24,059 nt of DNA from a virus (Duplodnaviria; Heunggongvirae; Uroviricota; Caudoviricetes): the IMG/VR virus record IMGVR_UViG_3300042691_010651; one strand, written 5' to 3'. The translations under genes were made by a program, and so were the position numbers. Shown here piece by piece: positions 2,092 through 22,444 of this stretch (its first letter is position 1; each line of letters starts with the position of its first letter). Under the pieces are notes generated by a model, which worked only from the letters and a program-made list of their open reading frames with translations, was not told the origin of the DNA and did no database searches.

Positions 2092-3109
2092 ATTCTTTTT
2101 TACTTATAAATCTTTCAATTAATCTCTTTGTTTCATCTACTCCTTTAATTTTTAAGTGATCTGCAAAATCTTTAATTGGTTCTTTACCAAATAACCTACT
2201 TCTAAATTCCATACCAAACATATATGGTTGTAATTTATATGCTTCTTTATATCTTTGCATCAATCTTATTCCTGCACGATCAAAATCAAATAAAGTACCT
2301 TGATTGTCAAATCTATTATATAAGTCAGTAAATACATCTTTATTTACAACTACTGTTTCACTCATTGGTGCAACTGAATATAAATCAAATTCTTGTGAGA
2401 AATTATCTATACACATAACGTCCTTAAAACTCTTAGTGTAAAGAAGATTATCTCCTGTCTGTGGCAATTGAGAATAACCTTGTATAATAGTACTATTAGC
2501 ATGTAGAAATTTACCTATTGTTCTTAATGGAAAATATAATTTATATTCATAACCTCCAAAATGATAAGCATAACAAGGATCAGATTCCTTATAGAAATAA
2601 GATGGAACTAATATATTATCTTCTCTAGCTATCCAAGATTGTTGTACTGGAGATACAGAGAAAAATTCTAGTCTTTCTGGAGAAATATGATAATCTCTCC
2701 AGAAAGCGTAATCTTTTTTAGTCCAACTTCTTCTTTTAATTCTTAATTGAGCAGCTTTTCTTTTAACTTTTTGTTTAGAACTTATGTATAAAGTAGATTG
2801 ATTACCTTCTATTATACCAAAGTCAATAGCTATTCTAATTAATGCTTCTTTAAATCCTAAGTTATAGTTATACTCAACAACATTAAAACAATCCCAATTA
2901 TATTTAGCAGCTACATCATGAAATTTCCAATAACCTCTAGCATCTATATAAAAGCTACAACCAGGATTTGAATCAGTAGTCCGTAATGGATTTACAAATT
3001 GACCTCTATCTGTTGGTTCAAACCCTAGATATTTTAGAAAGATTTGTTCTTGAGAAACTTTTGAAAGTATATATTCTTTTGTAATAATTGTTGTAACATT
3101 ATTAAACAT
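2069..3109 (-). CDS. dnaG: DNA primase (DnaG/TOPRIM type, crAss-like)
   Basis: The N-terminal NPLR..D.NP.CSF...D.F..V...Y...F.EA..I region resembles a degenerate CHC2 domain. TOPRIM motifs YTKSFKDVM and LFDFDRAG; C-terminal KDFADH. Confidence 0.85.
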   Translation of the reverse strand: MFNNVTTIITKEYILSKVSQEQIFLKYLGFEPTDRGQFVNPLRTTDSNPGCSFYIDARGYWKFHDVAAKYNWDCFNVVEYNYNLGFKEALIRIAIDFGIIEGNQSTLYISSKQKVKRKAAQLRIKRRSWTKKDYAFWRDYHISPERLEFFSVSPVQQSWIAREDNILVPSYFYKESDPCYAYHFGGYEYKLYFPLRTIGKFLHANSTIIQGYSQLPQTGDNLLYTKSFKDVMCIDNFSQEFDLYSVAPMSETVVVNKDVFTDLYNRFDNQGTLFDFDRAGIRLMQRYKEAYKLQPYMFGMEFRSRLFGKEPIKDFADHLKIKGVDETKRLIERFISKKEYDGRNIF

Positions 3110-7240: not shown

Positions 7241-8794
7241 CTAACTATCAATCCTGCTAACTCCAGATTCAATGTTTGATTGTTCAATAATAATCTCTTC
7301 GTCTGGCTCATAATTTGTTTTGAGTTGTATTGTTTGATTTATATTTATATCATTTATTGATGATACATTTATAACTGTCTTACCTTCTTGACTAGATCGT
7401 AACCACTTCTCTTCTTGAGTACCTTCCATATATAAACATATATTTAAAGCTCTCTTATTTGGATTCTCATAATCTAATCTTCCACTTCTTCCATTTCTTT
7501 GAGTACCTTGTCTAGCTTTAGAACTATATGCACATTGTAAAGTCATAGATACATTTGGTATATCTACTCCTTCATCCATAGCTCTTACAGTTGATATTGC
7601 TCTTGTAGGATCATTAGGATCAATAAATCGTTTTAATGCTAAATTTTTACGTTTAGCAGTACCTAGTATAGTATATCCATCTGCTACTAATTTCTTTTTA
7701 TGAACAGCATCAGTAACTTCAATCTCTTGTCCATCTTTAATACCTATAGTTTTTAAATTAGTATGGTAAGATACACAAATTTCTGGAATTAAACTAGTTA
7801 ATTTGTCTGCAAATGCAGAAGTTTCTGAGAAAACAATGGTTTGTAACGGAAACTTTTTAATAATATCTACAGCATATTTCAACTTAGAAGGAAAATTCTG
7901 CCACATGTTCTTACGTTCATGTATAACAGCCATACATTGAGCAGCATTTCTAGCTATATTAGTTGGAGAATATGGATGCTTAGGATTTCCATCATAATTA
8001 TTTACTCTTGCTAATTCAGCTATCCATTCAGTAGAAGTTTTCTTACCAAGATAAGTACCATTTCTAAGTTTAACAGACATTTTAACACCTTTTCCAGCAT
8101 TACATGCTTTAACTAGATCAAATTCATGTTGAAATCTACCAAAATAATACTTAAACTTCTCATTTATCTTAGTATTAAATTCTTGATCTTCAACTGATAA
8201 AGGAATGGCTAAGTTATAAATAGAACTAGGAGCTACATAACCATTAACTTGAGCATCTCTTTCTGTAACTGTATAAACAATAGGTATATTAAGTGATGCT
8301 AGGAAGTCCTTCTCCTTTTTCGATAAGGTAGCAGAACAGCCCATGAAAAACTTAAATTTAGTTATAGACAATACAGTAGAAAAAAATTGAGAATCTGTAT
8401 TGCAAATTCTGTGCAATTCATCTACACATAATAAATCACATTCCCAATTTTTATGTTTTACAAATGTATTAATTACAAATACTCTAAGATTTTTTAGATT
8501 ATGTTTCTGAATATGACCTTCAATAAATATTTTATTACCATTATCATCTTCATGGTAATATCCTATCCAATCTTGTAATAATTTTGTTGTTGGAACTATA
8601 ACAATTGCATGTCTGTCATTATATCTACTATTCATGAATTTAATAGCAAGTATAATAACGTATGTTTTACCCCATCCAGTTACACATTCAAGAGCACCTA
8701 TAGCAGGTCTAAGTATTCCATTTATTTCCTTACCTTTTCTCCAAGCTTCAAATGCAGATTGTTGACTTGCAAGTCTTATAGGATCAAGTTTCAT
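7241..8794 (-). CDS. superfamily 2 (DExH) helicase
   Basis: VTGWGKT, CVDELH, SAT, DEGVDIP, QRNGRSGR motifs. Confidence 0.92.
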   Translation of the reverse strand: MKLDPIRLASQQSAFEAWRKGKEINGILRPAIGALECVTGWGKTYVIILAIKFMNSRYNDRHAIVIVPTTKLLQDWIGYYHEDDNGNKIFIEGHIQKHNLKNLRVFVINTFVKHKNWECDLLCVDELHRICNTDSQFFSTVLSITKFKFFMGCSATLSKKEKDFLASLNIPIVYTVTERDAQVNGYVAPSSIYNLAIPLSVEDQEFNTKINEKFKYYFGRFQHEFDLVKACNAGKGVKMSVKLRNGTYLGKKTSTEWIAELARVNNYDGNPKHPYSPTNIARNAAQCMAVIHERKNMWQNFPSKLKYAVDIIKKFPLQTIVFSETSAFADKLTSLIPEICVSYHTNLKTIGIKDGQEIEVTDAVHKKKLVADGYTILGTAKRKNLALKRFIDPNDPTRAISTVRAMDEGVDIPNVSMTLQCAYSSKARQGTQRNGRSGRLDYENPNKRALNICLYMEGTQEEKWLRSSQEGKTVINVSSINDININQTIQLKTNYEPDEEIIIEQSNIESGVSRIDS

Positions 8795-9243
8795 TTTTTA
8801 TAATTAACAATTGTAGTATTATATTTACCTAAATGCTTTTCTATAACTTTATAAATATCATCCCAATTACCTCCTCCTATACCAGCACCAATATAAGGTA
8901 AACCAATTCTATGAGTAGTAAGTTGATTGTTATGTACAAATTTTCTAAGACTTAAATCTAAAGCAGATAATTCAAAATTATTTCCAGGAGCATGTTGAGT
9001 ATATAAATTAATAATAGTTGTACAAGATTCTTTGTTAAAAGCAAAAGTATAACTTCCAAGTTTCATTATACTACCTAATACTGTCTTTTTATCAACTATA
9101 TAAGCTTCTGGAAATTTATTTTTAATTTGTAAAGCTATACCTGCACCCATAGTACAAAAACAATTACAACCATGCATTATATAATCAAAGTAACCCTCTG
9201 AAGTAAGCTTCAGAAGGTCACCATTAATTGTTTTTAAACTCAT
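8791..9243 (-). CDS. macrodomain protein (Poa1/TARG1/DarG-like ADP-ribose hydrolase class)
   Basis: NGDL...HGCNCFCTMGAGIALQIK...INLYTQ...IGLPYIGAGIGGGNW. Confidence 0.9.
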   Translation of the reverse strand: MSLKTINGDLLKLTSEGYFDYIMHGCNCFCTMGAGIALQIKNKFPEAYIVDKKTVLGSIMKLGSYTFAFNKESCTTIINLYTQHAPGNNFELSALDLSLRKFVHNNQLTTHRIGLPYIGAGIGGGNWDDIYKVIEKHLGKYNTTIVNYKK

Positions 9244-18043: not shown

Positions 18044-18084
18044 AACCCTAAACAAATTGTGCTATGACCTACAACTTATTGTCT

Positions 18085-18387
18085 TTAATCGCTTGTACTC
18101 CTACTCCCACTCCCACTCCAACTCCCACTCCTACTCCCACTTCTACTCCAACTCCTACTCCAACTCCAACTCCCACTCCTACTTCCACTTCTACTCCAAC
18201 TCCTACTTCCACTCCCACTCCTACTCCCACTCACACTCCCACTCCCACTCCCACTCCTACTCCCACTCACACTCCCACTCCCACTCCAACTCCTACTCCC
18301 ACTCCAACTCCTACTCCTACTCCAACTCCTACTCCTACTCCTACTCCTACTATTTTCGTATCCTAATCTTAATAATGCAGCATTCAT
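18085..18387 (-). CDS. Ser-X (X = R/G/W/V) dipeptide-repeat protein (100 aa)
   Basis: TAATG overlap with the upstream gene; unique leader MNAALLRLGYEN, then 42 S-X units; terminator about 40 nt after the stop. Confidence 0.75.
   Translation of the reverse strand: MNAALLRLGYENSRSRSRSRSWSRSRSWSGSRSWSGSGSVSGSRSGSGSGSVSGSRSGSGSRSWSRSGSRSGSWSWSRSWSRSGSRSGSWSGSGSRSTSD
18097..18351. repeat. hexamer tandem array (ACT-CCN on plus, NGG-AGT on minus), 42.5 units
   Basis: Every unit starts ACT; 36 of 42 second triplets are CCN; contains an exact 36-nt tandem duplication (18211-18246 = 18247-18282). Confidence 0.97.
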
Positions 18388-18749
18388 TATTTTCTAGTTT
18401 TAGGTAAATCAGTTAGCCATTCAGTTGCATCAATTATACCACCTCTACCTACAATAACATCTCTTTGAAACATTTCAACTTCATTAAGTTTTCCATCTTT
18501 AAGAGCATCTGTAAATAAACCTGTATCAGCAACCCAACAAGCATCTGATAATAATAATTCTTTATCAGTTACTTTTTTAAGTTTACCTAATTGAATCATT
18601 GTAACTGTTCTAATTAGATAATTTTTACCGATTTCCCATAATGATTCTTCTCCATTAAGTTCAATTACTTTTGATAATTGAGAGTCTTTTGGAACATAAA
18701 CTACTCCTTCAATTGTTAATTCTTCTACTTTTACTTTTTGTGTTGACAT
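18387..18749 (-). CDS. small beta-rich protein, possible Sm/SH3-like barrel (120 aa)
   Basis: IGKNYLIRTVTMIQLGKLKKVTDKELLLSDACWVADTG...VIVGRGGIIDATEW; the strand pattern resembles Sm/Hfq-like folds (inferred). Confidence 0.75.
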   Translation of the reverse strand: MSTQKVKVEELTIEGVVYVPKDSQLSKVIELNGEESLWEIGKNYLIRTVTMIQLGKLKKVTDKELLLSDACWVADTGLFTDALKDGKLNEVEMFQRDVIVGRGGIIDATEWLTDLPKTRK

Positions 18750-19347: not shown

Positions 19348-19851
19348 TCATTTAAACCAATCAGGTTTACCTCTTTTAGTGAATTTTACAGGTTGTACTT
19401 TATCTGTTACTGTCCATTTATTGATCATAGTAGCTCTATATGCTTCAATAACTGGTAATTGCTTATACAAAGATGAGTTTTGAAAAGATTTAGGCTTACT
19501 ATCTGTTTCAATCATAAATGGAGTAATACTTGGTAAGTATCTCTTTACTGGATTAACATCATCAAATCTATACTCATATTCTTTAAATGTTTCAAGAAGA
19601 TGAATATATAACCACCAAGTATTAGCTCTATCTTTTCTTACCCATTTAGTTACAGGATGATTATATAGAAACAATGGTTCATTTCTATCTATATCACCCC
19701 ATAACGGAAATGGTACAACCCAATTATTTGTAACAGAATGGATATATGCTGTTAGACATTCAATATATTCTTTAGGCATATGCTTAATCCTTTTATCATC
19801 TAAGTTAATAGCTGATTGAATAGGAGAATTGTCTGTTACAAAAATATTCAT
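19348..19851 (-). CDS. pyrimidine-dimer DNA glycosylase (DenV-like) family protein
   Basis: MNIFVTD.SP..SA..LDDK...HM.KE; NHPVTKWVR...N..WL; EAYR...K...TKRGKPDW. Confidence 0.7.
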   Translation of the reverse strand: MNIFVTDNSPIQSAINLDDKRIKHMPKEYIECLTAYIHSVTNNWVVPFPLWGDIDRNEPLFLYNHPVTKWVRKDRANTWWLYIHLLETFKEYEYRFDDVNPVKRYLPSITPFMIETDSKPKSFQNSSLYKQLPVIEAYRATMINKWTVTDKVQPVKFTKRGKPDWFK

Positions 19852-21309: not shown

Positions 21310-21735
21310 TTATTTCATATGTTTTTTAAAATTATTATACTTCTCTATATACGATAAAGTAGATTTAGGTATTTTCTTTTTGTATATTACATAAGTAATA
21401 CCTGCGTTATAAGAAACAAGTTTATTATATGTTGTTACTTTATAACCATAATATCTTAAAAGTTGAGGAATACGAACCTCAAACATCCATCTAGCTATTT
21501 TTTCATTAATACTCTTTATGAATAAGCTATCTGGTTTTATTTTTGTATTATTTAGCTTATTGTAATCAGCTAAACATACTGGATGAATCTGATAAATACC
21601 TCTACTACCACCATCCTTTAGATTTATTGCTCTAACATTTCCACTTGATTCTATTTTAGCAATAATAGATAGATCAATTTGCTGAGATTTAAGTTGAAAT
21701 GAAATTAATGTAATTACAATCCATAAATTTTTCAT
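21310..21735 (-). CDS. lytic transglycosylase (SLT/lysozyme-like) with an N-terminal signal
   Basis: IAKIESSGN..A......SRGIYQI...YNAG motifs; hydrophobic N-terminus MKNLWIVITLISF. Confidence 0.85.
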   Translation of the reverse strand: MKNLWIVITLISFQLKSQQIDLSIIAKIESSGNVRAINLKDGGSRGIYQIHPVCLADYNKLNNTKIKPDSLFIKSINEKIARWMFEVRIPQLLRYYGYKVTTYNKLVSYNAGITYVIYKKKIPKSTLSYIEKYNNFKKHMK

Positions 21736-22017
21736 TTTGTTTAATTTGGTGAAACATATATTTAAGATATAAGATACGGTTCATGTATAACCTTTTGTTT
21801 TAACTTTAAGTTGATGTCAAGTTACGGAGACATTAAAGAACGTTTAAACATTTTTTATCTTACAATGATTTATAAATTAATATAAGTTCTTTTACCTTTA
21901 ATATTTCTTACTAATTGATAAGAAATATTTAATTTTTTAGATATATTAATTAGTTTTTAAATCTTTTCATAACATTTTCTTTTTGTAATATTTTTGCGTT
22001 ACCCGAGCTATACTACG

Positions 22018-22404
22018 TGGAGGTGGAGGGACTCGAACCCTCGTCTTACAATACTAACTACTACAATTTATTTATAAGCTTAGTCAATTGTGAACTGACA
22101 ACTATAGGCTGCATTTTTGCAACTCCACCATCTAATAATTTCAAGTATTAGAAACTTTTGGAGTAGATATTAAGTGTTAACTCCGTTCTCACTTTAAGCA
22201 GCTTCTGCAAGTTCTGCTTCCATTACTGGAACCATCTTACGAACTACTGCATCTTGACGATTTCCAAGTACCCCACCTAGTGAAGTAACAAGGGCTTTAT
22301 TTGCGTTGTCAATTGTTGTGCATGCATATTTTTAGTAGGTATAACATACTTCCCTACGCTTAATTGTAATAACTAATTACTGTAATCAATTCCAAGTCAC
22401 CCCC
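22018..22404 (-). ncRNA. ssrA: tmRNA (transfer-messenger RNA), 387 nt, CCA not encoded
   Basis: Acceptor GGGGGTG/CACCTCC-A with G3.U; T-arm GAGGG-TTCGAGT-CCCTC; long P2 helix; pk1 (GTAGG/CCTAC plus GTATGTT/AATATGC); tag frame ending GCT GCT TAA. Confidence 0.95.
22194..22310 (-). other. tmRNA tag reading frame (A)DNANKALVTSLGGVLGNRQDAVVRKMVPVMEAELAEAA*
   Basis: Resume codon GAC preceded by CAATT, 13 nt after pk1; 38 sense codons then TAA. Confidence 0.8.
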
Positions 22405-22413
22405 ATATTTTTG

Positions 22414-22444
22414 TAAAGTTAAAAATTATTTATTATAATGCAAA
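22414..22444 (-). promoter_or_regulatory. Bacteroidota-type promoter for the tmRNA
   Basis: TTTG-N19-TAACTTTA, ending 9 nt upstream of the tmRNA 5' end. Confidence 0.65.

Follow-up and report, generated by a model that had tools for sequence, protein, structure and literature searches.

A family of phage one-piece tmRNAs with long tag frames and signs of constraint on both RNA and peptide

The window analysed here, a stretch of 24,059 nucleotides from a Caudoviricetes record (IMGVR_UViG_3300042691_010651), carries a phage replication module with genes for PolB, a primase, a DnaB-like helicase, Sak4, a ligase and rIIA. The best reference-phage matches of the primase are crAss-like phages and Bacteroides and Flavobacterium phages, and PolB is best matched by Maribacter phage Panino, at about 30% identity in both cases. 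The same PolB is found on an 88-kb contig, and contigs of 86–98 kb bear it or close relatives; the sequencing runs that contain this DNA are mostly freshwater or fungus-labelled metagenomes. We infer a Bacteroidota host and a crAss-like affinity. The module also includes a macrodomain protein (8791–9243, minus strand; weak match to PF01661) and a protein whose relatives match the pyrimidine-dimer excision family (19348–19851, minus strand; weak PF03013). In the window we also observed a hexamer repeat (18057–18407) that holds a Ser/Arg/Gly/Trp-rich ORF of 100 residues (18085–18387, minus strand); frames on the opposite strand are open and repetitive as well.

Upstream of a gene for an SLT-like transglycosylase lies a complete one-piece tmRNA gene, which matches the full Rfam model RF00023 (model positions 1–374) with 75.6 bits and an E-value of 5.6e-28, the family threshold being 47 bits; its orthologs score 48.5–93.3 bits. 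The features of the locus are collected in Table 1. The first-pass annotation, made from the letters alone, had placed a phage tmRNA at 22018–22444 and had proposed ARAGORN and Infernal as a check. The tmRNA is real, although the RNA gene itself begins at 22404, and the Rfam model detects it whereas ARAGORN with default settings calls no tmRNA in the window. Since ARAGORN missed this RNA and gave wrong short tags on several viral homologs, we read the tags by a positional rule and by hand.

Table 1. Features of the tmRNA locus, in window coordinates.
Feature	Positions	Strand	Remarks
One-piece tmRNA gene	22015–22404	-	RF00023; discriminator A at 22018; identical copy in two further assemblies
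Acceptor stem, 5' strand	22398–22404	-	7 pairs with 22019–22025, including the alanine-identity G3-U
P2 connector helix, 5' strand	22358–22385	-	partner at about 22047–22084; long helix, from folding and Rfam alignment
Pseudoknot pk1	22324–22357	-	compensatory change in stem 1; stem 2 83% paired (four orthologs)
Putative resume codon GAC (Asp)	22308–22310	-	tmRNA position 95; 13 nt past pk1; A at -4
Tag frame	22194–22310	-	38 codons plus TAA (22196–22194); end LAEAA
Hairpin A	22270–22286	-	inside tag frame, codons 9–14; 7 pairs, three-base loop
15-nt invariant block	22248–22262	-	DNA-identical in five orthologs; codons for NRQDA; resume-like site in +1 frame
Long H5-like stem (predicted)	22197–22250	-	mid-frame pairs with last codons; encloses the length-variable part
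Candidate small H-type pseudoknot	22160–22194	-	directly 3' of the stop; two 5-pair stems without G-U; prediction
Post-stop hairpin	22102–22128	-	starts at the GGTGGA motif; from folding
T-arm	22026–22042	-	two-sided changes at two pairs
Bacteroidota-type promoter-like motif	22414–22444	-	TTTG, 19 nt, TAnnTTTA; 9 nt before the RNA
Cover by RNA-library contigs	22038–22396		contigs of 359, 357 and 287 nt, zero differences
SLT-like transglycosylase gene	21310–21735	-	PF01464; downstream of the tmRNA, outside the RNA; synteny anchor

The elements expected of a tmRNA are present as had been described: an alanyl-tRNA-like domain (G3-U acceptor stem, T-arm and discriminator A), a P2 that folds as a long helix, and a pk1 that is supported by covariation. 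CCA is not encoded, the 3' end of the gene being A-C-G-T. Two-sided changes among four orthologs occur in P1, in stem 1 of pk1 and in the T-arm, and the acceptor stem is paired in all cells with one such change, in the ortholog L219. Past the stop codon, where pk2–pk4 usually follow, folding gives hairpins and at most one small pseudoknot candidate, of which a weaker version lies at the same place in the ortholog L224. In vitro, tmRNA can do without its last three pseudoknots (PMC3985003), and pseudoknot loss is known in other lineages. The GGTGGA motif follows the stop in 30 of 42 viral tmRNAs and in 12 of 74 bacterial ones. A protein gene overlapping the 5' domain, called in the relative L206, was rejected: three stops interrupt that frame in the window.

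We placed the resume codon from its position and its conservation. The same context is found at tmRNA position 95 in four orthologs and at 93 in a fifth; in E. coli tmRNA the main determinant of the frame is A86 (PMC2481249). From this GAC (first base 22310) the frame is open to the TAA that ends at 22194, yields the same 38-codon peptide as the first reading and closes with Ala-Ala-stop. In dinucleotide shuffles, a frame of at least 37 codons from that start arises in 6%, and one that also ends in Ala-Ala in none of 3000.

The RNA had also been credited with its own promoter. A motif with one mismatch to the TAnnTTTG -7 box of Bacteroidota (consensus in PMC9723704) is indeed placed just upstream, but such motifs are no commoner in the window than chance (3 found, 2.6 expected), so that what speaks for a promoter is its position. 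The motif as such is not conserved in the orthologs, and a sigma-70 promoter scan stayed at chance level. As for expression, one contig in each of three RNA libraries, from three freshwater studies, falls entirely inside the tmRNA gene, and a search for RNA-library contigs on the flanking genes gave no match; a contig from a DNA run, unlike these, extends beyond the 3' end of the tmRNA. This contig-level evidence, in which strand, ends and level are not readable and DNA carry-over is not formally excluded, hints that the tmRNA is transcribed as a stable, discrete RNA, and is a sign of its expression in nature.

Relatives were reached through PolB and the neighbouring SLT gene. In three of them, L206 (PolB 62% identical), L219 (64%) and L224, a tmRNA lies upstream of the SLT-like gene, with tags of 37, 44 and 38 codons that end in ELELAA. 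A further tmRNA with a 44-codon tag (L235/L237) was found by a loose pattern whose matches were mostly chance. The members read at the DNA level differ by in-frame length changes. A search of the 89.7-kb viral record that contains L235/L237 detected neither this PolB nor this primase, and the tmRNA family is therefore not confined to one phage clade. Just downstream of the tmRNA in L237 (9656–12984, plus strand) we noticed several genes that resemble those of glycosyltransferases and a sugar epimerase, as judged from ORF starts. A profile search added nine members that had been mis-called as small proteins; these are known from protein sequence and measure about 36–41 residues where the start is readable. 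The close relatives L209, L221, L225 and L226 have no tmRNA in the stretch examined around the site, and the gene thus looks accessory. In L221 a degenerate tRNA-like sequence without an Rfam call (2770–2850, plus strand) occupies the place of the tmRNA upstream of the SLT gene. We found no close relative in cultured phages. Exact DNA patterns had no matches in the metagenome collection, single-protein locus searches in viral contigs returned nothing, and viral scans with pk1 and core patterns gave no matches or chance matches. The tag frames of L206 (6405–6620, plus strand), L224 (737–871, plus strand) and P0143–P0154 are called as hypothetical proteins of 31–71 residues; gene callers thus report tags as proteins, and protein databases contain phage tmRNA tags. 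Standard annotation accordingly misses the gene, with no ARAGORN call and the tag given as a small protein.

The published range of tag length is 8–35 residues (PMC8012679), and the tag of this phage falls outside it. The built-in table of ARAGORN (1273 entries) has a maximum of 31, with 9 for Bacteroidota and 25 for mycobacteriophage Bxz1. The present family spans 36–44 codons, other viral one-piece tmRNAs that we sampled have tags of 16–34 residues (the one of 34 read by hand), and bacteria matched by the same pattern have 9–10. In all, 30 distinct viral tags of 16–44 residues stand against 17 bacterial tags of 9–10, in a survey that applied one 5'-end pattern to both collections and added viral loci by synteny and by related patterns. 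The pattern was itself built on this RNA, the reading rule accepts tags with a final Ala, and the sequences are not independent of one another. In two-piece phage tmRNAs the tags are shorter, at 10–16 residues. Long-tag tmRNAs also turned up in bins labelled Melainabacteria and Flavobacteriaceae (L099, L188), which are probably phage contigs: one of the two tags is identical to a viral one, and the other lies among phage-like genes. The length called exceptional in the first-pass annotation is thus beyond both the published range and the ARAGORN maximum, but it is the norm of its family, in which equally long tags are common. Tags of 38–44 exceed the published maximum of 35 and form, within phages, the upper end of a continuum. 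Since relatives keep the length, and most keep the degron end, the long tag looks like a phage-wide redesign rather than a single oddity. Phage tmRNAs are already known, in 402 of 18,146 phage genomes (PMC9004378; see also PMC4131195), and long tags have been described for Mollicutes and Bxz1. A literature search, mostly in journals readable without subscription, turned up no account of such tags in phages of Bacteroidota. What the family adds is an extension of known tag length and a systematic contrast between phage (16–44 residues) and host (9–10).

Compared with the chromosomal one-piece tmRNA of Bacteroidota (SsrA, RF00023; tags of 9 residues, e.g. GENNYALAA), the phage RNA has in common the G3-U tRNA-like domain, P2, pk1, a resume codon near position 95, an Ala-Ala end, a length of about 390 nt and a CCA that is often not encoded. 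It differs in being phage-borne, in a tag four times longer, in a coding region folded into hairpins, and in a post-stop region of 178 nt (median 272 in the chromosomal RNAs) with at most the small pseudoknot candidate described above. Mycobacteriophages of the Bxz1 group (an acidic tag of 25 residues) and Bacillus phage G (13 residues) likewise encode a complete tmRNA (PMC4131195), and the Bxz1 tag is also well above the typical 9–12 residues; it belongs, however, to another host phylum, is shorter, bears no likeness in tag sequence and ends in ALV rather than AA. The extended tags of Mollicutes, up to 31 residues in the ARAGORN table and read by Lon, are similarly long, contain an acidic stretch and close with small hydrophobic residues, but they have AFA-type ends and arose with the loss of ClpXP, whereas the tags of this family are viral and end in LAA or EAA, which is not the end of a Mollicutes-type extended Lon degron. 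In cultured or reference phages of the Bacteroidota type, tmRNAs occur as the two-piece RNAs of the crAss-like phages cr272_1 and cr10_1 and of Maribacter phage Panino; that of cr272_1 also has Glu at -3, but their genes are permuted, their tags have 14–16 residues, and they match this RNA at the tRNA-like ends only. A viral permuted and very compact tmRNA (L004, 4748–4903, minus strand) has a 10-residue tag and apparently lacks pk1.

The Ala-Ala end with Glu at -3 was read correctly at the outset, and it had led to the idea that the tag might stabilise rescued products. Among 14 members, nine tags end in LAA (mostly as ELELAA), two in EAA, and one each in LVA, ELA and LVD; terminal Ala-Ala is thus present in 11, this phage included. 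The residue at -3 is Leu in most members and the non-hydrophobic Glu here and in P0144, as in 2 of the 598 distinct tags of the ARAGORN table. For recognition by ClpX the last two alanines matter most and the residue at -3 has a modest effect (PMC7652416), and a screen found Leu to be favoured upstream of Ala-Ala (10.1101/2024.01.29.576913). We would accordingly expect a degron that is retained, perhaps weaker, and not a stabiliser. That the tag stabilises rescued proteins or adds a functional peptide, so that the products of cleaved messages survive, could draw on the acidic C-terminal half of the tag, on the two Glu residues at -3, and on the predicted tag of P0147, which ends in Asp and would block ClpX recognition; this last is a protein-level reading in which an error is possible. 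Because nine of 14 members end in LAA and Glu at -3 is a minority state rather than a family trait, and with ClpX chiefly reading the terminal Ala-Ala, we consider such a role unlikely. The helices for which the tag had been judged long enough do not lend support either: amphipathicity is not above that of shuffles (p 0.45), the structure prediction has low confidence (pLDDT 62, pTM 0.19), and a search of solved structures with the tag gave nothing significant. Three other viral tags, of 28–30 residues (L003, L045 and L082), start with a basic amphipathic helix that does exceed shuffles (p 0.005–0.04, uncorrected) and resembles membrane-binding helices.

The tag frame itself stands, but the first reading had overlooked its own conserved RNA structure. 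In hairpin A all 28 cells are paired and four of the seven pairs show two-sided changes (four orthologs), although the structure was derived from these same sequences and all four changes set one sequence apart, and may reflect few events. In L237 the hairpin is kept with a register shift of one base while the peptide core is unchanged. The long H5-like stem is predicted in five of five orthologs, with differing registers. Across viral tmRNAs, the post-stop region is shorter where the tag is longer (rho -0.64, for sequences that are not independent), and the median total length is 389 nt in viral and 397 nt in bacterial tmRNAs. Predicted RNA pairing accounts for part of the conservation of the frame. 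On the peptide side, an alignment of 13 members shows no variation at G12, G16, R18, D20, A21 and L34, G12 and G16 being maintained through synonymous changes (G16 by three different codons). In three viral families the tag frame has the lowest dN/dS of the three frames (0.44–0.60; pN/pS about 0.6), a modest level of selection on the peptide. In the core, changes at the three codon positions number 7, 9 and 12, an excess that is not significant (p 0.19). A likeness of the GNRQD part of the core to the NKxD motif of GTPases is unsupported. The data support a dual constraint, on RNA and on peptide, and do not establish a specific function of the peptide.

How much the peptide matters is where the remaining explanations part. 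The GxxLGNRQDA core might be a specific signal that hands tagged products to a different protease or adaptor of the host, or else to a factor of the phage, which we regard as possible but doubtful. The invariant core residues (G, G, R, D and A), the codon usage at G16 and the low nonsynonymous/synonymous ratio speak for such a signal, as do the long tags in nearly all sampled viral one-piece tmRNAs and in the unrelated Bxz1 (25 aa), and there is a precedent in Mollicutes, where the extended Mycoplasma tag re-routes to Lon (PMC9382460). Against it, the excess in codon positions stays short of significance, substitutions in codons 9–14 track base pairing, the NRQDA codons are invariant as DNA and could equally be held by a constraint on the RNA, and tags of different phage families have no obvious motif in common. 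A search for SspB in a sample of five genomes behind Bacteroidota-labelled loci gave no match, and neither did the Bacteroides control; with no known adaptor, adaptor routing would need an unknown one. A fuller version, to which we give a similarly tentative place, is that Bacteroidota-type phages append a module of their own, of 36–44 residues, to stalled host and phage proteins, the core altering the protease or factor that handles them and the message doubling as an RNA scaffold.

At the other extreme, the content of the tag would be incidental, the RNA serving as a divergent spare tmRNA beyond the reach of nucleases from host or phage, or else competing for SmpB, with the frame no more than an open passage to an in-frame Ala-Ala. 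RNA pairing does explain much of the frame conservation, the gene looks accessory in view of its absence from the stretch examined around this site in four close relatives, and an RNA consisting of the tRNA-like domain alone can inhibit tmRNA (PMC4131195). A stop after about nine codons would suffice for this, however, and is found in no member, and the weak purifying selection on the peptide in three families also disfavours it; we hold it to be rather improbable. The invariant block allows yet another reading, in which translation resumes, instead or in addition, at an internal site (tmRNA position 147, +1 frame) and gives a Val-Lys-Met-Gln tag without a degron. This is the sole other resume-like site common to the four orthologs scanned, it sits within the DNA-invariant block, and by inspection its short +1 frame persists in L237. 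Still, 65 nt separate it from pk1, and the host and phage tags that we read all begin at positions 83–99; the conserved in-frame ELELAA end would have no explanation, and the +1 stop is a simple consequence of GTA-G codon pairs. We judge an internal start highly improbable.

The reading that we prefer, and to which we give about an even chance, is that of a functional rescue RNA that works together with SmpB of the host and adds Ala plus 38 residues, the product still going to proteolysis and the length being in part a matter of RNA architecture. Reliance on host SmpB had been presumed from the lack of the gene in the window, and it is likely: SmpB is absent from seven of eight near-complete viral records with such tmRNAs, and from a 91%-complete record of this tmRNA family. 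On this preferred account, the phage tmRNA would be transcribed as a discrete RNA, to which the contigs point, and host enzymes would mature it, supply the CCA and load it with alanine. The charged RNA would enter stalled ribosomes of a Bacteroidota cell with host SmpB and EF-Tu, translation would resume at the GAC 13 nt past pk1, and Ala and 38 residues would be appended. The Ala-Ala end would most likely still send the product to ATP-dependent proteolysis, though probably with lower efficiency here, where Glu replaces Leu at -3. Two constraints may set the length: hairpins in the frame could replace part of the downstream pseudoknot ring while the total RNA length stays close to 390 nt, and the peptide core, which is loosely conserved, could serve as a linker or a secondary contact with the protease. 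The likely benefit would be more capacity for ribosome rescue during infection. Not everything fits this working rescue RNA equally well. The maintenance of G12 and G16 through synonymous changes and the register shift in L237 suggest a peptide role beyond that of a linker, tag ends vary (EAA twice; ELA, LVA and LVD once each), and Glu at -3 is rare among ARAGORN tags.

RNA pairing, peptide core and terminal degron are separable, and each can be altered alone. A tag with a different protease preference, if true, would be useful as an orthogonal degron in Bacteroidota genetics. Finally, in a jumbo phage (L009/L229, a 318-kb viral record that is 96% complete, and L014/L228) we came across a phage-encoded SmpB (PF01668, E about 1e-48), which together with a tmRNA bearing a 21-residue tag makes a complete phage-borne trans-translation pair.
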